A DNA stretch of 64,000 nucleotides from sequence record MH550421; one strand, 5' to 3'. The notes under the pieces are model-generated. The model had not been told where the DNA came from. It ran no database searches and worked only from the letters and a program-made list of their open reading frames with translations. The translations under genes were made by a program, and so were the position numbers. Below are positions 20,085 through 50,647 of the stretch, in pieces. Origin of the DNA: Enterobacteria phage T6. Each line of letters opens with the position of its first letter. Within the stretch, counting starts at the first letter, position 1.

Positions 20085-21853
20085 AAAAGCCACAAGAAAT
20101 GCAAACGATGCGTAGAAAAGTTATTTCAGATAATAAACCAACACAGGAAGCGGCTAAATCCGCTTCTAACACTTTATCTGGACTTAACGATATATCTACG
20201 AAATTGGATGATGCTCAAGCTGCTTCTGAATTAATAGCTCAAACTGTCGAAGAAAAATCGAATGAAATAGTTGGAGCAATTGGTAACGTAGAAAGCGCAG
20301 TGAGTGATACTACTGCCGGTTCTGAGTTAATTGCTGAAACTGTCGAAATTGGCAACAATATTAATAAAGAAATTGGTGAATCACTCGGAAGCAAATTAGA
20401 TAAATTAACAAGTTTACTAGAGCAAAAAATTCAGACAGCTGGAATTCAACAGACTGGAACTAGTTTAGCCACAGTTGAAAGCGCTATTCCTGTTAAAGTC
20501 GTTGAGGATGATACTGCTGAATCTGTGGGTCCTTTATTACCGACTCCTGAAGCAGTTAATAATGATCCTGACGCTGATTTTTTCCCTACCCCTCAGCCAG
20601 TTGAGCCAAAGCAAGAATCACCAGAAGAAAAACAGAAAAAAGAAGCATTTAACTTAAAATTATCTCAAGCTTTAGATAAATTAACAAAGACAGTTGATTT
20701 TGGATTTAAGAAATCCATTTCAATTAGTGATAAAATATCAAGCATGTTATTTAAGTACACCATCAGTGCTGCTATTGAAGCTGCTAAAATGACTGCAATG
20801 ATATTGGCTGTTGTTGTTGGAATAGATCTGCTGATGGTTCATTTTAAATACTGGTCAGATAAATTTTCAAAAGCCTGGGATTTGTTTAATACTGACTTTA
20901 CTAAATTCTCTAGCGAAACCGGAACATGGGGTCCTTTATTGCAGAGCATCTTTGATTCTATTGATAAAATTAAACAACTTTGGGAAGCGGGAGATTGGGG
21001 TGGATTGACAGCAGCTATTGTTGAAGGACTCGGAAGTGTTCTTTTTAATTTAGGTGAACTTATTCAATTAGGTATGGCTAAATTATCTGCAGCAATTCTT
21101 CGAGTCATTCCTGGTATGAAGGATACTGCTGATGAAGTAGAAGGAAGAGCATTAGAAAATTTCCAAAATTCTACTGGAGCATCTCTCAATAAAGAAGACC
21201 AGGAAAAAGTTGCAAATTATCAAGATAAACGAATGAATGGAGACCTTGGTCCGATAGCAAAAGGATTAGATAAAATTGCTAATTGGAAAACTCGTGCATC
21301 TAATTGGATTCGTGGGGTTGATAATAAAGAAGCACTAACTACCGACGAAGAACGTGCAGCAGAAGAAGAAAAATTAAAGCAGCTTTCACCTGAAGAAAGA
21401 AAAAATGCTTTAATGAAGGCTAATGAAGCCCGTGCCGCAATGATTCGCTTTGAAAAATATGCTGATTCAGCTGATATGAGTAAAGACTCAACGGTTAAAT
21501 CAGTTGAAGCTGCCTATGAAGACCTTAAAAAACGGATGGATGACCCGGATTTAAATAATTCACCGGCAGTTAAAAAAGAACTTGCTGCTAGATTTTCTAA
21601 AATTGATGCTACTTATCAAGAGCTCAAGAAAAATCAGCCTAATGCCAAACCTGAAACTTCTGCTAAATCACCAGAAGCAAAACAAGTCCAGGTAATAGAA
21701 AAGAATAAAGCACAGCAAGCTCCTGTTCAACAAGCATCTCCTTCGATCAATAATACTAATAATGTTATTAAGAAAAATACTGTCGTTCATAATATGACAC
21801 CCGTAACGAGCACGACTGCTCCTGGTGTATTTGATGCGACTGGAGTTAATTAA
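20081..21853 (+). CDS. 29: Baseplate hub / tail length determinator gp29
   Basis: 590 aa; ATGA overlap with gene 28. Confidence 0.9.
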   Translation: MKKPQEMQTMRRKVISDNKPTQEAAKSASNTLSGLNDISTKLDDAQAASELIAQTVEEKSNEIVGAIGNVESAVSDTTAGSELIAETVEIGNNINKEIGESLGSKLDKLTSLLEQKIQTAGIQQTGTSLATVESAIPVKVVEDDTAESVGPLLPTPEAVNNDPDADFFPTPQPVEPKQESPEEKQKKEAFNLKLSQALDKLTKTVDFGFKKSISISDKISSMLFKYTISAAIEAAKMTAMILAVVVGIDLLMVHFKYWSDKFSKAWDLFNTDFTKFSSETGTWGPLLQSIFDSIDKIKQLWEAGDWGGLTAAIVEGLGSVLFNLGELIQLGMAKLSAAILRVIPGMKDTADEVEGRALENFQNSTGASLNKEDQEKVANYQDKRMNGDLGPIAKGLDKIANWKTRASNWIRGVDNKEALTTDEERAAEEEKLKQLSPEERKNALMKANEARAAMIRFEKYADSADMSKDSTVKSVEAAYEDLKKRMDDPDLNNSPAVKKELAARFSKIDATYQELKKNQPNAKPETSAKSPEAKQVQVIEKNKAQQAPVQQASPSINNTNNVIKKNTVVHNMTPVTSTTAPGVFDATGVN

Positions 21854-23949: not shown

Positions 23950-24240
23950 TTATTTACGGAATGAAATGAAAGCAGAAACTGAAGCAACTAAACTGTCTTC
24001 AATATAAACTTCAATTTTTACCGGAGCTTCTGACTCAAATTTACCTGTTACTACACCCTGAAAAATACTTTCAGTTTGTTCTGGCTTTGAAAAATTTTCA
24101 GAAGGAAAAATTCCGAACTTTTTATCTGTTCCAAAAATTTTAATAAATTCATCGTAAACTGCTTCATTAAAAGCATTATCAGCAGGAATAACGCCTTCAA
24201 CTACAAGTTCTTGACCTAAAAAGCGCAAAGAAGATTTCAT
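23950..24240 (-). CDS. Hypothetical protein (alt.-3-like)
   Basis: 96-aa ORF downstream of Alt paralogs; GAGGAA Shine-Dalgarno. Confidence 0.5.
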   Translation of the reverse strand: MKSSLRFLGQELVVEGVIPADNAFNEAVYDEFIKIFGTDKKFGIFPSENFSKPEQTESIFQGVVTGKFESEAPVKIEVYIEDSLVASVSAFISFRK

Positions 24241-24301
24241 TTTGTGTTCCTCATGTTATGTCAGTAAGACTATTATAACACAACATAAGGAACTTGTAAA
24301 C
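24241..24301 (-). promoter_or_regulatory. Candidate early promoter (GTTTACA-N17-TATAAT) with leader for the alt.-3-like gene
   Basis: Minus strand GTTTACAAGTTCCTTATGTTGTGTTATAATAGTCTTACTGACATAACATGAGGAACACAAAATG; matches T4 early promoter consensus. Confidence 0.55.
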
Positions 24302-26358
24302 TACATTTTGAACTTTTTAGACATTCCGTTGATGTTAACCAAAGAAGCTAAGATTTGAGAAACTTCGTTTTCCTCTTCTTTTGATTCTTCTACAAGGAAT
24401 TGATTAAATCCAGTCATTGGACGAACTTCACCAGTTTCCATTAGATGGTCTCCATCATATACTGATTCTTCTAATTGTTCAGAAGGAGGAACGATTGTAC
24501 CTTCGATTAGATACTTGTTATAAGCAGTTTCTTTCATAAAGTACGTACTTACTTTATTAATCTTCAGTAAAATTCCACGCGGTAGAATAACTTCAGCTTC
24601 TGATGGAAATCCTGTTAAATGACCTGGAACGATAACTTTGATTCGCTCAGCTCCTTTAATTACCATACCCACGCTAGTTTCAGCATCTTCATTAGCATAT
24701 GTAGAATGACTACCCATATGCATCAAATCTTCTGCATCAACAGAACCTTCTCCTTCGCCAGAAAATACTTCACCGGAATCATCTAGAGCCATATAGTTTT
24801 TACCATGCTCACCGAAGATATTCGGTTTAAGCGATGTAGATACGAAGTTCTTGAAATAGAACATTTTGTTTTCAATGTTATGACGCAAAGTTTTAAAGGT
24901 AACTTCTTGTCCACGATAAAGCGTAGTTCCTGGAGGAAGAACTGAACCTTTAGCGAATGCAGAATCCAACGTCTCGATGTGCTTAATGGCACGTTCCATA
25001 TATTCTTCACGGGTAGAATCTGGTTTACCCAAAAGGAACGAGTTCATTTCAACATATGAATCTGCACAATAATCTTCAATTACATCAGATTCAGCTTGAG
25101 TTAATCCTTTTGGAGTTACTTCAGTACTTGCATATTCATACGCCTGAGCAGCAGATTCATTAATCAATTTATAAATGCCATTCATTACAAATTGAATAAT
25201 AGCTGTCTTTTCATCTGGCGTGGCTTTAGAACCTTTAACTAAATCATTAATAATTTTCTTAATAACATCAAAGCTATTAGAAATATTAATGTCAGCAAGA
25301 TCGCTTAAAATTTTATCAGTTTTATAATCAAAGAATTCTTTATTCTTTAAATATTCTTGAGAACCTTGATATGTTATATCGCTCTGCAGCTTGATAGATG
25401 GATCACGTAAACGCGCATGGGCCAATGCGATATGATTTCGGAAGTTTTCTAGTTCATAATCGCTAGATTTAAAACGAGAAGCACTCCTCATACCACCGAT
25501 AGCTCCTTTGCCGAAGTTTGAACCAATCTGGATAACGCCAGAGTTCATCGGACCTTCTGCTTTATATACCGGAACTTTAGATTCAAACTCTTGATATTTC
25601 TTGGCAGCGAAGCTATCACCCTGAAGTGAAGCATCAACAGTAGAATATTGAGCTTGTGCTGCTAATCGACGACTAATTTTAGTTTTCTGAATAACAGCTT
25701 GGTCCGTGCGCTTATCATTTTCTAAAGCAATAGAAGCAGCAACAGCGACAGCTTTAGGAACAGCATTACCTGTTTTAACGTCTACATAAACATCACCAAC
25801 CTTTGATTCAACTTTTGTGAATAACTCAGTTGAAATAGGAGGTACACCTGGAATGTCTTCTAAATTGGCATTTTTACGGTAAACCATAATATATGCGTAC
25901 TTTTTATCATAATCCCAGATTTCCTTTAAAAGAACATATCGACCTGCTCCTTTAATACGTACTAAACGGTCAGCAATAACTTGCATTTGACGAGCAGCGC
26001 CATTTGTTTTACTTTTTAGTACGCGGAATAAGCATGCGTCGATTTTATACTGTTTCATTGTTTGAAGAGCAGTATCAAAAACAGCATTAATGACGCCAAT
26101 TGGATTTCCACCCAAGTTTTTAAGCTTGACTAACGATAATTTCTCGTTGACACCTATCATTACGATATGCATCATTTTATCGCCTGGCTTAACGTTTTTA
26201 TTTGTATCACCGCCAGAGGTGTATGTACAAAATCTAAATCCAGGAAGCACACTTTCTTCGCCGGCTTGAATAGCAAAAATTTGTGGTATTTTATGCTTAG
26301 GATTTAAGTTAACAACCGGCGCCGAAGCGCCGTCAAATAATTCTGTAATAAGTTCCAT
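24301..26358 (-). CDS. Alt-family mono-ADP-ribosyltransferase paralog
   Basis: 685 aa; N-terminal about 230 aa colinear with the adjacent Alt (MELITELFD..., KIDAC..., RYVLLKE.WDYDKKYAYI); C-terminal R/S/E-x-E motifs (YRGQ, FVSTSL, SEAEVILPRG). Confidence 0.75.
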   Translation of the reverse strand: MELITELFDGASAPVVNLNPKHKIPQIFAIQAGEESVLPGFRFCTYTSGGDTNKNVKPGDKMMHIVMIGVNEKLSLVKLKNLGGNPIGVINAVFDTALQTMKQYKIDACLFRVLKSKTNGAARQMQVIADRLVRIKGAGRYVLLKEIWDYDKKYAYIMVYRKNANLEDIPGVPPISTELFTKVESKVGDVYVDVKTGNAVPKAVAVAASIALENDKRTDQAVIQKTKISRRLAAQAQYSTVDASLQGDSFAAKKYQEFESKVPVYKAEGPMNSGVIQIGSNFGKGAIGGMRSASRFKSSDYELENFRNHIALAHARLRDPSIKLQSDITYQGSQEYLKNKEFFDYKTDKILSDLADINISNSFDVIKKIINDLVKGSKATPDEKTAIIQFVMNGIYKLINESAAQAYEYASTEVTPKGLTQAESDVIEDYCADSYVEMNSFLLGKPDSTREEYMERAIKHIETLDSAFAKGSVLPPGTTLYRGQEVTFKTLRHNIENKMFYFKNFVSTSLKPNIFGEHGKNYMALDDSGEVFSGEGEGSVDAEDLMHMGSHSTYANEDAETSVGMVIKGAERIKVIVPGHLTGFPSEAEVILPRGILLKINKVSTYFMKETAYNKYLIEGTIVPPSEQLEESVYDGDHLMETGEVRPMTGFNQFLVEESKEEENEVSQILASLVNINGMSKKFKM

Positions 26359-26361
26359 GAT

Positions 26362-28455
26362 TTATCCTTGAACGAACTTGTAAGGCATGTTTGTAATATC
26401 TATGCAAGACGCAATAATTCCAAGAGATGATTCTACTTTCTGTTTAACATTTGATGAAACAAATGATGCAAAGTCAACTCTGTCTTCTATTTCAATATCA
26501 CCTGTCATTGCAACTACTTCACCGGTTTCCATTAAACAGTCTCCGTCATAGATTACCGATTCGGTGAGTTCTTCTGTGGTCATAACTTCAGCTTGAATGA
26601 GTTTTGTATTGTTAGATGTTGTTCCATCATTATTAGAAGCATCAGTTATTTTATTAACTTTGACCATTAATCCGCGCGGTAGAATAACTTCAGCTTCTGT
26701 TGCTATTCCGAGACTTCCTGGATATACAACATTAACTTTATGAGCTCCATCAATTGCCCATCCTATTTGAACTTTAACGTATTCAGGATTTTCTTTATAC
26801 GCTCTTATTTCGTTTGGATTAATAGTTATTCCTTCTTCATTTTTATCAACTGTTAATTCATTGCGAGCTTCTGGTTCTAAAAGACCAATACCAGCATGTG
26901 TAATTCCAAAACGTCCAAAAATGATAGGAGTTAAAGAAGTAGATACAAAATTTCTGAAATAGAATACTTTATTTTTAACTAGCGCTTCGTATATAGGAGC
27001 AGTCATACTTTGAGCACGATAAACTGTAATGCCTTCCGGTATGCGGTCACCATTTTCAAAAGCTGAATCTAAATTATTTATAGCAGATTCAATTTCTTTT
27101 TCACTCATTACATCATATCGTTCTGGATTGTAACGACCTAAAAGAAGATTATTAATGTCTGTATATCCTGAACCACAATACTCTCTAATACCGCGCTTTT
27201 GCGATGGAGTATATTTAGAACCATCACGGGCAATAGTAATATCAATCATTGGGCCTGCACCAATTCCAGAAAAACTATAAATCATTCGTTTGAGGAATTT
27301 AGTTTTTGCTGCATTCCAGGCATTTTTAGTTATTTCTCCCCAGACTTCATCTGGTTGCCCTTTACGAGTTTTATTATGTTTATCAAGCCAATTATCTTTA
27401 TATTCTTCAAAGAATTGATTGACAGCTGCTGCGTATTTCTCTAAACATTTTATTGAAGTAGTTGGTTCATTTTTGATCGCATTAAGAATTACATCTTTAA
27501 TTTTTTCGGAAACTTCATTAACCTCACTTTTTGAAAAGAATTTATAGTCATAGTGAAGTTCATTCGCAGTTCCTTCGGCAATAATTTTTGCTGCCTTAGT
27601 TTTAGAAGCTAATGAATTAATTCCAAGCTTCATTTCTTCTGCTTCGGGAATTAAAGGAGCAGTAGCAGGTTTATTGAAATTAGCTGCGGTAGATTCATAC
27701 TTCTGGAATAATTCACTTTCAAATCTAGAAGATTCCAATGACTGACTTTGTGCAATTGCTCTACGGGAAATTTTAACTTTAACGATTACAGCTTGGTCAG
27801 AACGTTTATCATTTTCTTGTGCAATAGATGCTGCAATTGCCTCATTTTTAGTTACTTGAGCTCCAGTATCTTTATTGATATAAACATCACCGACCTTCGA
27901 TTCAACCTTAGTAAAGAGCTCGGTACTAATTTCCGGAACTCCTGGAATGTCTTCTAGTGATACATTTTTGCGATGTATAAGAATATATGCATACTTTTTA
28001 TCATAATCCCAGAGTTCCTTAAGAAGGACGTATCTTCCACCTGAACGACTACGGATAAGTCTATCAGCAATAACTTGAATTTGTCGAGCTTGGCCAGCAG
28101 TTTTAGACTTAAGAATACGAAGCATGCAGGCATCAATTTTATACTGACGCATTGTTTGCATTGCAACAGTAAAAACTGAATTGATATAATTAATTGGGCT
28201 TGGTCCAAGACCTTTTAATTTAGCAATTGAACCTTTAGCAGTTAATGTAAAAGGAACAATATGCATCATTTTATCGCCCATTTTTAAATCGCGATTAGTA
28301 TCACCTCCGGATGTATAGGTACATAAACGAAAGCCTGGTTGTTCAATTGCATCATCAACATGAACTGAAAAAATTTGCGGTATTTTCTTCTTTGGATTTA
28401 AGTTTGTAATTGGAAGAGTAGTATCTTCGTCAAATAATTCTGTAATGAGTTCCAT
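26362..28455 (-). CDS. alt: Alt ADP-ribosyltransferase (packaged internal head protein)
   Basis: 697 aa from second Met; MELITELFDEDTTLPITNLNPKKKIPQIF...; ART motifs YRAQ, FVSTSL, TEAEVILPRG; directly downstream of gene 30. Confidence 0.85.
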   Translation of the reverse strand: MELITELFDEDTTLPITNLNPKKKIPQIFSVHVDDAIEQPGFRLCTYTSGGDTNRDLKMGDKMMHIVPFTLTAKGSIAKLKGLGPSPINYINSVFTVAMQTMRQYKIDACMLRILKSKTAGQARQIQVIADRLIRSRSGGRYVLLKELWDYDKKYAYILIHRKNVSLEDIPGVPEISTELFTKVESKVGDVYINKDTGAQVTKNEAIAASIAQENDKRSDQAVIVKVKISRRAIAQSQSLESSRFESELFQKYESTAANFNKPATAPLIPEAEEMKLGINSLASKTKAAKIIAEGTANELHYDYKFFSKSEVNEVSEKIKDVILNAIKNEPTTSIKCLEKYAAAVNQFFEEYKDNWLDKHNKTRKGQPDEVWGEITKNAWNAAKTKFLKRMIYSFSGIGAGPMIDITIARDGSKYTPSQKRGIREYCGSGYTDINNLLLGRYNPERYDVMSEKEIESAINNLDSAFENGDRIPEGITVYRAQSMTAPIYEALVKNKVFYFRNFVSTSLTPIIFGRFGITHAGIGLLEPEARNELTVDKNEEGITINPNEIRAYKENPEYVKVQIGWAIDGAHKVNVVYPGSLGIATEAEVILPRGLMVKVNKITDASNNDGTTSNNTKLIQAEVMTTEELTESVIYDGDCLMETGEVVAMTGDIEIEDRVDFASFVSSNVKQKVESSLGIIASCIDITNMPYKFVQG

Positions 28456-31722: not shown

Positions 31723-31921
31723 TTTCAATGCTTATAATTTCAACATCAGCCCAATGACCATAGCAAGGAAGACGAAATTCAACTGGCCAGTTAGGGTCCT
31801 TTTCTAATATAATAGACTTAACTTGTGGTTCTTCGTGTTCATCAGTATATGGATTTTTATCTGTTACTTTATATGTGACCTTAATGTACTGAATTCCAAA
31901 AATCTTATTAATTATATTCAT
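31715..31921 (-). CDS. Hypothetical small protein
   Basis: 68-aa ORF in 30.x cluster. Confidence 0.45.
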   Translation of the reverse strand: MNIINKIFGIQYIKVTYKVTDKNPYTDEHEEPQVKSIILEKDPNWPVEFRLPCYGHWADVEIISIENV

Positions 31922-32875: not shown

Positions 32876-33208
32876 TTATTTTACTACTTTCCAATACTGC
32901 ATGTCAAGTTTACCAACTTTTTTCATCTTCTCAATTAAGCGTTCGGCACGTTGGCGAGCTATAACATAACACCATTCACCTAATTCATTTTGTTCAATTT
33001 TTCCAACGATTACTGTATTCAATTCATAAATCCAACCAGTAAAGAAATTATGAACTTGAATTGTAAAGGTGAAATCTGTTCCCATACCTTCTGTTGTTTC
33101 TACTTCAATAATATCACCTTCAACTGCCATTAAGAACCACATAGTTTCATTATATTTACCATTGAAGCATTTAGTTTTAACTGCAGCGTTCAGATTAATC
33201 GTTTTCAT
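32876..33208 (-). CDS. Hypothetical protein
   Basis: 110-aa ORF with AAGGAG Shine-Dalgarno. Confidence 0.5.
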   Translation of the reverse strand: MKTINLNAAVKTKCFNGKYNETMWFLMAVEGDIIEVETTEGMGTDFTFTIQVHNFFTGWIYELNTVIVGKIEQNELGEWCYVIARQRAERLIEKMKKVGKLDMQYWKVVK

Positions 33209-33232
33209 TTTATTCTCCTTTGTTTGTGTAAG

Positions 33233-33265
33233 ATAATACTATCACAAAGGAACCGTACTGTAAAC
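33233..33265 (-). promoter_or_regulatory. Candidate early promoter (GTTTACAG -35)
   Basis: Minus strand GTTTACA then about 17-19 nt then TATTAT upstream of ORF 32876..33208. Confidence 0.4.
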
Positions 33266-36789: not shown

Positions 36790-36828
36790 GGTAGAGCTAT
36801 AATATCACAACTCTACCGTAAAGTAAAC
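36790..36828 (-). promoter_or_regulatory. Candidate early promoter (GTTTACT-N17-TATTAT) with -10 enclosed by inverted repeat
   Basis: Arms GGTAGAG / CTCTACC flank the -10; upstream of ORF 36241..36768. Confidence 0.45.
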
Positions 36829-39251: not shown

Positions 39252-39748
39252 AAAGTTTTAATAACCTCTATAATATCGTCTTGAGAAAGACCGTTAATTA
39301 AAATATGATGTTCAGCTGGAGATTTAGAAATTTTAAAGCATGCCTCAACATCTTCTGCCATATCTGATGCACTACGATTTGGATTACTAATTCCAAGACG
39401 ATGCTTTCCAGTCAAAGGATTAACGATGATATAGCATTTACAACTATTGATATGAACATTAGGTTGAGTCTGATTAATAAATACATCACAATCATATTTC
39501 GCAAGCTGATTTTCTAAAAAGACTTTCATCTCTTCAACCGCATCAGGAAGCATATCACGGGCTTGCTCAAGACGACGATTTCGATATTCTTTAATGGTCG
39601 TTTTCCGCTTGACTTGCTTAGCTAAATCTTTCTTAAGATCGGTGATATATCCAACTCGACGGTTTCCTTTGAATACAGAAATCCCATCTGTAGTATCACC
39701 GTATGCTTCAACGACCATTTCAGTAGTAATAAGCTGCAAATCCATCAT
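39242..39748 (-). CDS. alc: Alc, inhibitor of host transcription
   Basis: 168-aa ORF at conserved position between spanins and rnlA. Confidence 0.75.
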   Translation of the reverse strand: MMDLQLITTEMVVEAYGDTTDGISVFKGNRRVGYITDLKKDLAKQVKRKTTIKEYRNRRLEQARDMLPDAVEEMKVFLENQLAKYDCDVFINQTQPNVHINSCKCYIIVNPLTGKHRLGISNPNRSASDMAEDVEACFKISKSPAEHHILINGLSQDDIIEVIKTLCN

Positions 39749-39809
39749 AAAGTCCTCATGTTATGTCAGTAAGACTACTGTAACACAACAAGAGGGACTT
39801 GTAAACAGC
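39749..39809 (-). promoter_or_regulatory. Candidate early promoter with leader for alc (paralogous to element at 24241..24301)
   Basis: Minus strand GTTTACAAGTCCCTCTTGTTGTGTTACAGTAGTCTTACTGACATAACATGAGGACTTTATG; about 90 percent identical to the alt.-3 upstream element. Confidence 0.5.
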
Positions 39810-41397
<1,588 letters not shown>

Positions 41398-50346: not shown

Positions 50347-50574
50347 TTATTGTTCAATCAGTCCCATGTAAAATTCTGCGTCTTCAGCATCCATACCGTC
50401 GCAGTATTCATTAGCCATAAAGCGGGTGAGGTCTTCAAGAGGACCTTCAATAACGATTTGAATACTCCAAAACTTAGAATCTTGTACGCTTGTGATACTA
50501 AGTTCAGGATAACGATTACGAATAATTTCTTCAATATATTCAAAATCAACGATGTCAATATCAACTTTAGCCAT
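50347..50574 (-). CDS. Hypothetical small protein
   Basis: Track ORF 50347..50637; likely start ATG at 50574 ([10 protein letters not shown]...) with AAGAGGAAAA Shine-Dalgarno. Confidence 0.45.
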
Positions 50575-50617
50575 ATTATTTTCCTCTTTAATTATCAACA
50601 GTATTGCCGATAGTTGT

Positions 50618-50647
50618 ATAGTACCATGGAAGAACAAGGATGTAAAC
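50618..50647 (-). promoter_or_regulatory. Candidate early promoter (GTTTACA-N17-TACTAT)
   Basis: Minus strand GTTTACA then 17 nt then TACTAT, just downstream of gene 32 terminator. Confidence 0.4.

Follow-up and report, generated by a model that had tools for sequence, protein, structure and literature searches.

Several genes of bacteriophage T4 are controlled by hairpins that mask the Shine-Dalgarno (SD) site and have a promoter embedded in them. At e, soc, 49 and I-TevI the SD site is helical in transcripts derived from upstream, while transcripts from the embedded promoter lack the 5' strand of the helix and are translatable; the effect at e is about 100-fold (PMC3014915). The same 2010 review of translational control in T4 also covers I-TevII/III, mobE and segB, and contains no case concerning alc, alt.-3 or an early promoter (PMC3014915). 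A second described system, PeSL, consists of an early promoter, a stem-loop, an SD site and a start codon and is known from RB49/phi1, PST/T4 and nt-1/KVP40. According to the relevant sections of the two reports, PeSL stems are often located between -35 and -10 or over the -10 box, and one of them terminated as efficiently as rrnB T1 (PMC2839356, PMC4122927). Here we describe two related cassettes in a stretch of 64,000 nucleotides from Enterobacteria phage T6 (MH550421; the whole stretch is called the window). One is located upstream of alc, the gene of the T4 host-transcription shut-off factor Alc, the other upstream of a gene homologous to T4 alt.-3. The Enterobacteria phage T6 record AP018814.1 matches the window at 100% identity (window position = record position - 95996).

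Both cassettes contain an early promoter whose spacer can pair with the leader of the downstream gene, including its SD site. We consider them to be probably an early-promoter version of the device at e, soc, 49 and I-TevI, with translation dependent on the gene's own promoter and the SD site masked in read-through RNA. The sequence layout, predicted folds, covariation, the distribution of the cassette and expression classes form the basis of this reading, and from these we infer the start site of transcription, the existence and amount of a read-through RNA and the effect on translation. As in the described device, translation would be bound to one promoter class. The SD site is predicted to be paired in the long RNA and open in the own transcript. 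The described cases carry a late TATAAATA promoter, whereas the cassettes carry an early, sigma-70-type one (TTTACA-N17-TAnnnT). The temporal logic is reversed, in that early RNA would be translated and read-through RNA masked, and the 5' arm of the cassettes is the promoter spacer itself.

The cassettes resemble PeSL in their composite make-up, in a stem that overlaps the promoter, in very similar repeats per genome and in evidence of exchange between loci. In the sections of the PeSL papers that deal with the stems, these are read as G/C-rich terminators or attenuators and as recombination substrates (PMC2839356, PMC4122927); the PST/T4 stems are drawn upstream of the promoter, and masking of the SD site is not proposed there. 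In contrast, the cassette stems have no T-run, span the -10 box and the start site, and their 3' arm is the SD site. In a literature search that excluded T4 work from before 2000 and the genome review of 2003, no account was found of an early-promoter spacer masking an SD site; nothing relevant was found on dyad symmetry at T4 early promoters or on early promoters at alc and gene 63.

Results

Anatomy of the two cassettes

Both cassettes are on the minus strand, the direction of early and middle transcription in T4. Copy A occupies the 61-nt gap between the stop codon of rnlA (RNA ligase 1, gene 63; 39812..39810) and alc, and copy B extends from the stop codon of an alt-like gene of 685 amino acids (24303..24301) to the alt.-3 homologue of 96 amino acids (ATG at 24240). 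Their common core of 54 nt, GTTTACA...CATGAGGA, is found at 39806..39753 (A) and 24301..24248 (B) and is identical at 49 of 54 positions (90.7%). Hence the duplicated promoter-leader cassette of about 90% identity that had been reported in the initial annotation is confirmed for the core, although the ranges given there were 3 nt out of register; in the true register, 39746..39806 against 24241..24301, 50 of 61 positions are identical. The common leader also proved real, the 24-nt AGTCTTACTGACATAACATGAGGA showing no difference between the copies. Each cassette combines a T4-type early promoter, a leader and an SD site, in the order TTTACA, 17-nt spacer, -10 box preceded by TG, 24-nt leader, GAGGA and, 7–9 nt further on, the ATG.

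Both promoters conform to the T4 early type (-35 GTTTAC(A/T), spacer of 17 ± 1, -10 TAnnnT), with GTTTACA-17-TACAGT in copy A and GTTTACA-17-TATAAT in copy B; T4 has TATAGT at both loci. TG precedes the -10 box in each (GTGT-TATAAT and GTGT-TACAGT), and the sequence before -35, where the preceding gene ends, is not clearly A-rich. With the T4 early promoters (Pe) as outlined in the pertinent parts of two reviews (PMC2988021, PMC1524935) the cassettes share the GTTTAC -35 element, the 17-nt spacer, TGn and the TAnnnT -10 element, as well as the position directly before early genes. Those parts of the reviews cover the elements of promoter recognition and are silent on any pairing of the spacer with the leader or SD site (PMC2988021, PMC1524935). 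The cassettes also fit the PST/T4 PeSL promoter consensus TTTACW-N17-TAYWAT, as given in the relevant section of PMC4122927, and the site at alt.-3 carries the annotation 'predicted early promoter' in Yersinia phage fPS-65.

The initial annotation proposed a search of the genome for more copies; in the window, every other 61-mer differs from both by more than 24 mismatches. In Tequatrovirus, 499 records contained 997 places matching the element, two in every record among those listed, and among these no third place was found in the T6 record. Separately, a 54-nt match (94%) to the T-even cassette is present at 31824..31877 of GenBank MG010123.1 (Staphylococcus phage SAJK-IND, 32 kb), most likely reflecting a contaminated or chimeric assembly.

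Predicted pairing between promoter spacer and leader

The complementary arms, each of 16–18 nt, join the promoter spacer to the leader through the SD site. Arms of 5 nt had been described initially (AGTCC/GGACT in A, GTTCC/GGAAC in B); these are present, but the complementarity is considerably longer. That the upstream arm belongs to the promoter spacer and thus precedes the start site had been overlooked and is the key to the proposed mechanism. Copy B forms a perfect 16-bp helix (GTTCCTTATGTTGTGT with ACATAACATGAGGAAC), and copy A forms the same helix with about 15 bp, one bulged C and one U.U mismatch. Because the outer pairs of copy A are kept only via the 1-nt bulge, its register slips, and the difference between the copies is not a column-for-column compensation. 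In both copies the -10 box and the predicted start site are within the hairpin loop. Therefore, the 5' arm should not be transcribed from the cassette's own promoter, and since it is upstream of the predicted start, pairing would be possible only in read-through RNA arriving from rnlA or alt.

Spacer and leader form duplexes of -18.1 kcal/mol in copy A, equalled by 0–1 of 300–500 spacer shuffles, and of -23.5 kcal/mol in copy B, equalled by none of 500. Predicted folding energies of the read-through RNAs are -29.2 kcal/mol for alc and -24.1 kcal/mol for alt.-3, corresponding to z = -4.0 and -4.9, with 0 of 200 shuffles as stable, and RNAs beginning 1 nt past the -10 box, hence without the 5' arm, show no more structure than shuffled sequences (z ≈ 0). 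In a read-through RNA of 300 nt the probability of pairing between the SD site and the 5' arm is 0.89–1.0 for alc and 1.0 for alt.-3. The predicted cost of opening the region from the SD site through the AUG is 10.6 kcal/mol in read-through RNA against 3.9 kcal/mol in own-promoter RNA for alc, 14.8 against 3.8 kcal/mol for alt.-3, and 6.6 against 0.1 kcal/mol for a third T6 element located before a homologue of gene 30.8 (see below).

The alc read-through RNA contains an additional outer helix, formed by the region of the rnlA stop codon and alc codons 4–6. It reads AAGTTGT/ACAACTT in T4 and AAGCTGT/GCAGCTT in T6, one pair being changed on both sides (T-A against C-G), and a C.A variant occurs at the loci L025 and L006 of the collection described below. 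The whole window gave 0 Rfam matches at the gathering score. An intrinsic terminator was also considered and rejected on the grounds of sequence, since no U-run follows the 3' arm in 11 of 11 lineages of the SD-pairing subset and a scan returned 0 terminator-like sites.

The upstream reading frame ends close to the hairpin, and translational coupling would be another way of linking the two genes: ribosomes that finish rnlA or alt would melt the hairpin at the stop codon, and the downstream gene on read-through RNA would be translated only in step with the upstream one. In the lineages examined the upstream stop is indeed only 0–8 nt before the -35 box, and the 5' arm starts 9–14 nt past the first base of the stop codon. 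The usual ribosome footprint, however, ends about 12 nt past the first base in the A site. Of the 13–18 pairs, no more than about 0–3 would come within range of a ribosome at the stop codon, and given the distance from stop codon to arm, coupling is unlikely to open more than about 3 of them. The assignment of T4 RnlA and Alt to the late protein class, as against the early class of Alc and Alt.-3, also speaks against tight coupling, which we regard as improbable.

Covariation at alc across T4-like lineages

Alc homologues were found in 1136 phage records. The alc upstream regions were collected from 12 other genera and from 44 IMG/VR loci (identified by L numbers). Scanning IMG/VR with the exact pattern gave 8 loci, all from Tequatrovirus, and searching it with the Alt.-3 protein gave 5 close relatives; the annotated phage collection was used. 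The order rnlA stop, about 60 nt, alc is held in 10 of the 12 other genera. In most lineages TTTACA is followed directly by an anti-SD arm, then by the -10 box, a YTAC motif at the position of the predicted start, and a 3' arm ending in the SD site. The arms are perfectly complementary within a lineage and different between lineages, as in the pairs TCTCCGTTTAGTT/AACTAAACGGAGA, TCCTCATCAG/CTGATGAGGA, AACCTCTCATTTT/AAAATGAGAGGTT and TCCTCATTTCGT/ACGAAATGAGGA.

For 20 lineage representatives, pairing of each spacer with its own leader gave a mean of -16.2 kcal/mol, compared with -9.1 kcal/mol with foreign leaders; the own leader was the best partner in 13 of 20 lineages, and none of 20000 permutations matched the observed mean. 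In a structure-blind MAFFT alignment of 22 elements, 76.8% of the cells of a single 17-bp helix were paired, against 36–51% with slid partners. Changes on both sides were seen in 11 of the 17 pairs, and the covariation score was reached by 0 of 500 shuffles. Direct compensation is exemplified by A-U (L012) against G-C (L064), with an A.C intermediate (L031), and by CAT/ATG (L017) against CGT/ACG (L045). A covariance model built only from alc elements outside Tequatrovirus recovered the T6 elements at alt.-3 (30.1 bits), alc (20.7 bits) and, as a third, the one before the 30.8 homologue (29.9 bits, E = 4e-4).

RNAalifold predicted no pairs in the MAFFT alignment of the 22 elements because the stems are in slightly shifted registers; it was replaced by the pair count on a fixed helix and the alignment-free permutation test. 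The covariance-model alignment (A5) was left out of the pair counts, as reverse-strand matches of the palindromic stems were mixed in. On these comparative grounds the conclusion stands that the hairpin at alc is under selection. The 3' arm covers the SD site in most alc lineages while the rest of the arm varies, which argues for gene-specific selection for SD pairing.

Two further arrangements were seen. At L034, L035 and L063 (about 540–600) there is no SD stem; here GGGG-TGTACAAG-CCCC and a T-run precede alc, with the -35 box (TGTACA) in the loop, a terminator-like structure. At L066 (about 540–600) a hairpin AGTCCTCA...TGAGGACT followed by T6 is wholly downstream of the -10 box, so that the gene's own transcript would mask the SD site as well.

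History of the alt.-3 copy

Selection for the structure had initially been argued from the T6 copies themselves, whose arms differ in a matching manner, and relatives in which the arms do not co-vary had been named as refuting it. This is the case in most relatives. The alt.-3 cassette of T4 has an alc-type upstream arm (AAGTCCCTCGTG) but its own SD-side arm (GAGGAAC; GGAAC against GGACT), which results in a C.A mismatch, and the T4 copies at alc and alt.-3 are identical at 53 of 54 positions. Of 497 Tequatrovirus records, 41, including those of T2 and T6, matched a 42-nt probe for the T6-type upstream arm exactly, and the match was at 90–95% identity, the band of the T4 type with its 3 differences, in 395 of 497. 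All three substitutions specific to T6 are transitions that permit pairing (C.A to U-A, C-G to U.G, G.U to A-U), and the T6-type arm gains only about 1 kcal/mol over the T4 type (-24.1 against -23.0 kcal/mol). Thus, the claim that the hairpin is selected holds through the covariation at the alc locus across T4-like lineages; that the two copies resemble each other says little about selection on the structure.

In six other genera alt.-3 is preceded by a different cassette, TTTACA with a short hairpin inside the spacer (CAC-AAGGA-GTG type), and no SD-masking stem. Copy B is therefore a secondary copy specific to Tequatrovirus and does not testify independently to the structure; it is best read as derived from the alc cassette and kept similar by recombination. 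The type of cassette differs between Tequatrovirus and the six genera at alt.-3, and in Mosigvirus-like phages at alc, which fits an exchange of cassettes. Pairs of paralogous copies are hence poor evidence of covariation where gene conversion homogenises them.

T4 and T6 also differ upstream of alt.-3, with alt.-1/-2 in the one and a full alt-like gene in the other, the junction being outside the cassette. T6 apparently has two tandem alt-like genes, 24301..26358 (-) and an open reading frame (ORF) ending near 26380 (-) with an Alt-like C-terminus. The T4 counterpart is alt followed by the short alt.-1 and alt.-2, which according to the annotation are left over from a duplication of alt. T4 alt.-2 and the T6 alt-like gene end alike before the cassette, in KKFKM*.

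The upstream AUG

An upstream AUG whose UGA overlaps the main AUG, noted in the initial annotation, is present in both T6 copies (39759..39757; 24254..24252) but is not conserved. Among 23 elements (21 alc lineages, T6 alc and T6 alt.-3) an upstream AUG is found in 15 and the arrangement with overlapping UGA in only 7. A short ORF, AUG-AGG-...-UGA over the main AUG, might be translated and control the main start by termination and reinitiation, as its presence in both T6 copies and the AUGA overlap in 7 of 23 elements would allow. Yet the AUG belongs to the SD context (AUGAGGA) and has no SD site of its own, it is absent from 8 of 23 elements, and in 8 more the frame is another or the stop codon does not overlap the main AUG. 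The AUGA overlap, moreover, arises automatically wherever the main ORF begins with ATGA. A conserved upstream ORF was rejected; control by it is largely refuted by the lack of conservation, and we give it almost no credence. Independently of the reading frame, the motif AAUG(A/G)GGA, with the AUG immediately 5' of the SD site, recurs in 15 of 23 elements (loci L012–L066), which may simply be part of the stem.

Similar elements at other early promoters of T4 and T6

T4 (1–76 kb) and the T6 window were scanned for early-promoter-like sites followed by an SD site and an ORF, which gave 33 candidates. In 13 of these the complementarity between spacer and leader exceeded at least 297 of 300 spacer shuffles, where about 0.3 would be expected by chance. 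The SD site is covered in 7 of the 13, namely at motB.2, nrdC.8, regB, denV, 30.8, alc and alt.-3. Positions of these elements are listed in Table 1 together with the features of the two cassettes.

Table 1. Features of the alc (A) and alt.-3 (B) cassettes in the T6 window, and further early promoters with SD pairing in T6 and T4.
Feature	Position	Strand	Remarks
A, -35 hexamer TTTACA	39800..39805	-	4 nt past rnlA stop (39810..39812); consensus scan TTTACA-17-TACAGT, TG before -10
A, 5' arm AAGTCCCTCTTGTTGTGT	39783..39800	-	last -35 base and 17-nt promoter spacer; contains anti-SD CCCTC
A, -10 hexamer TACAGT (T4: TATAGT)	39777..39782	-	TGT before (extended -10); in hairpin loop
A, predicted transcription start	39770	-	A of CTTAC, 7 nt past -10; inferred from promoter geometry
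A, 3' arm ACATAACATGAGGACTT	39750..39766	-	includes SD GAGGA (39753..39757) and upstream AUG (39757..39759)
alc start codons ATGATG	39743..39748	-	first ATG 39748, annotated ATG 39745; UGA of 4-codon upstream ORF 39745..39747
A, outer helix 5' strand TAAGCTGT	39805..39812	-	spans rnlA stop codon; partner is alc codons 4-6
A, outer helix 3' strand GCAGCTTA	39730..39737	-	within alc
B, -35 hexamer TTTACA	24295..24300	-	immediately past TAG stop (24301..24303) of alt-like gene
B, 5' arm GTTCCTTATGTTGTGT	24278..24293	-	inside promoter spacer
B, -10 hexamer TATAAT	24272..24277	-	TGT before; in loop; predicted start A24265
B, 3' arm ACATAACATGAGGAAC	24246..24261	-	includes SD GAGGA (24248..24252) and upstream AUG (24252..24254)
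alt.-3 homologue start codon	24238..24240	-	96 amino acids, 23950..24240
30.8 homologue element	33203..33264	-	same architecture, other sequence; TTTACA-N17-TAGTAT, spacer CCTTTG with SD region CAAAGG(AG)
motB.2, T4 AF158101	8217		SD-pairing early promoter; alc-like architecture, other sequence
nrdC.8, T4 AF158101	53942		as motB.2
regB, T4 AF158101	62796		as motB.2
denV, T4 AF158101	65412		as motB.2

The presence of regB behind one such hairpin calls to mind the RegB endoribonuclease, which cuts GGAG/GGAU in early SD sites where an A-rich stretch comes next, and which secondary structure readily inhibits (PMC3014915). The hairpin could accordingly shield the GGA(G) of the SD site in read-through RNA, so that the long transcript would be spared together with the genes beyond alc, and many alc leaders do carry GGAGAAAAC-type sites. 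The alc and alt.-3 leaders of T6 and T4, however, contain GAGGA and not GGAG, and any such shielding could accompany SD masking by the one structure, without being an exclusive alternative to it. As the reason for the hairpin we judge it very improbable.

Stems of other kinds were also seen. Stems over the -10 box that do not reach the SD site are present in the window (-; first -35 base at 36827, 32872, 49913 and 7769) and in T4 at 20611 (dmd), 57989, 65798 (ipII) and 73938 (ipI). In these leader-only stems the spacer is complementary to the first transcribed bases, and the sequence differs from stem to stem (for instance GGTAGAG/CTCTACC, GGTACAGG/CCTGTACC and AGGGTA/TACCCT). A second family of repeated cassettes, TTCTTCCATGG-TACTAT-ACAACTATC..., has at least 3 members in T4/T6, at 50646..50572 (-) of the window after gene 32 and at 27079 and 70695 in T4. 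A third, with the spacer hairpin CCACAAGGATGTGG-TATAAT, is found at T4 2457 and 50972; promoters of this type precede alt.-3 in other genera and alc in Mosigvirus-like phages. Upstream of rnlA, at about 40990..40962 (-), the sequence ATGCTTCCA-N12-TACTAT is a candidate for a MotA-dependent middle promoter.

Expression classes in T4

In T4, alc and alt.-3 are assigned to early RNA and early protein, the rnlA protein to the late class, and alt to middle RNA and late protein (PMC9697503, supplement). All seven genes behind SD-covering hairpins belong to the early class for both RNA and protein (PMC9697503, supplement). Where the protein encoded immediately upstream was classed (5 cases), it belongs to a later class in 4, dexA, vs.3, ipII and rnlA being middle or late and nrdC.9 early (PMC9697503). 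For alt.-2, the neighbour of alt.-3, no protein was detected, and alt, two genes further up, is of the late class (PMC9697503).

Discussion

According to the model that we favour, RNA reading through from rnlA into alc, or from alt into alt.-3, would contain both arms and fold, masking the SD site, and ribosomes would initiate poorly on it. RNA from the cassette's own promoter would be without the 5' arm, its SD site open and translatable. Translation of alc and alt.-3 would thereby be tied to the firing of their own early promoters, and both genes would be insulated from transcripts made for a neighbouring gene whose protein accumulates later. The alc cassette would be ancestral, and the alt.-3 copy of Tequatrovirus may have arisen from it via recombination or gene conversion, being kept 91–98% identical.

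Several observations weigh against this model. The literature search found no experiment on the hairpin sites of alc or alt.-3. Pairing of the SD site is missing at alc in the Mosigvirus-like L016/L046, in L061/L062, in Acj9 and in L060, of which the Mosigvirus-like phages and L061/L062 have a spacer hairpin only and Acj9 and L060 no stem; in L042, L048 and PSTCR6 the stem around the -10 box ends short of the SD site. Imperfections are tolerated: the T6 alc helix has a U.U mismatch and a bulged base, and alt.-3 has C.A in T4 and, probably, in the majority of Tequatrovirus. In the own-promoter RNA of alt.-3 the SD site is predicted to pair with codons 3–5 at a probability of about 0.95, a pairing that is nevertheless weak and takes only about 3–4 kcal/mol to open. 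The rnlA RNA of T4 is classed as 'early' (PMC9697503), which bears on the amount of later RNA reading through into alc, and the middle promoter table in the part of PMC2988021 that lists mapped T4 promoters does not contain one for rnlA. Among the 13 significant stems in T4 and T6, 6 are off the SD site, and the stem may therefore have a more general role. Finally, sense and antisense strands fold alike (-19.7 against -20.0 kcal/mol, the sense strand better in 10 of 23). Outside Tequatrovirus, therefore, G.U pairs give no proof that the sense RNA is the selected molecule.

This last point is what would be expected if the inverted repeat acted in DNA, where a hairpin or cruciform at the -10 box might modulate the early promoter, for instance in its shut-off, or be the target of a structure-specific protein. 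Outside Tequatrovirus the strands fold equally, since nearly all pairs in the stems are Watson-Crick; at 13 of the 33 early-promoter candidates the -10 box is the centre of the repeat, and the mechanism of early-promoter shut-off in T4 is described as not fully understood in the sections on this subject in PMC3014915 and PMC2988021. On the other hand, the 3' arm at alc tracks the SD site, which has no meaning in DNA. The Tequatrovirus copies, moreover, contain 1–3 G.U pairs, which would be A.C mismatches on the other strand, and the sense strand is 4–10 kcal/mol more stable. The loops are of 12–20 nt, and loops of this size disfavour cruciform extrusion. Action in DNA hence appears quite improbable.

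A general role of PeSL type is the serious rival, although we consider it rather unlikely as the full explanation. The stem would then attenuate or terminate upstream transcription, protect the 3' end of the upstream RNA or provide homology for recombination, and inclusion of the SD site would be a by-product of the gap of about 60 nt. PeSL cassettes are described in T4-like phages in the relevant sections of PMC2839356 and PMC4122927, and the T6 and T4 cassettes are likewise repeated units, with two copies per genome that are 91% (T6) to 98% (T4) identical, the latter being the 53 of 54 positions given above. Cassettes have also probably moved between loci, the alc type being found at alt.-3 of Tequatrovirus and a spacer hairpin of the alt.-3 type at alc of Mosigvirus-like phages, and significant stems occur at 13 of 33 early promoters, not all of them reaching the SD site. 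Against this, the SD-pairing lineages show neither a T-run past the stem nor a hit in the terminator scan, and the stems are A/U-rich. Recombination homology would leave the complementarity of the arms unexplained, and at alc the 3' arm covers the SD site in most lineages while the arm sequence otherwise varies. We therefore retain SD masking dependent on promoter choice as the more fitting account of the alc cassette.

It is conceivable, though we would not presume it, that masking nested in the promoter extends beyond alc and constitutes a conserved regulatory layer of T4-like phages, marking out a set of early genes for which only RNA from the own early promoter can be translated; alc, regB, denV, motB.2, nrdC.8, 30.8 and alt.-3 may be candidates for it in T4/T6. 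In that event, with early promoters switched off after minutes and read-through from upstream continuing, the layer would account for part of the sharp and incompletely explained stop of early protein synthesis.

If the model is true for alc, RegB, DenV and others, 'early' timing would be enforced at translation besides the promoter. The classic late-gene hairpins of e, soc, 49 and I-TevI would be linked with the PeSL cassettes, and a PeSL-type stem would acquire a definite task. A promoter spacer that doubles as a regulatory RNA arm would be relevant to annotating and engineering T4-like therapeutic phages, in which the expression logic of a transferred gene would depend on whether the 60 nt before it were moved as well.

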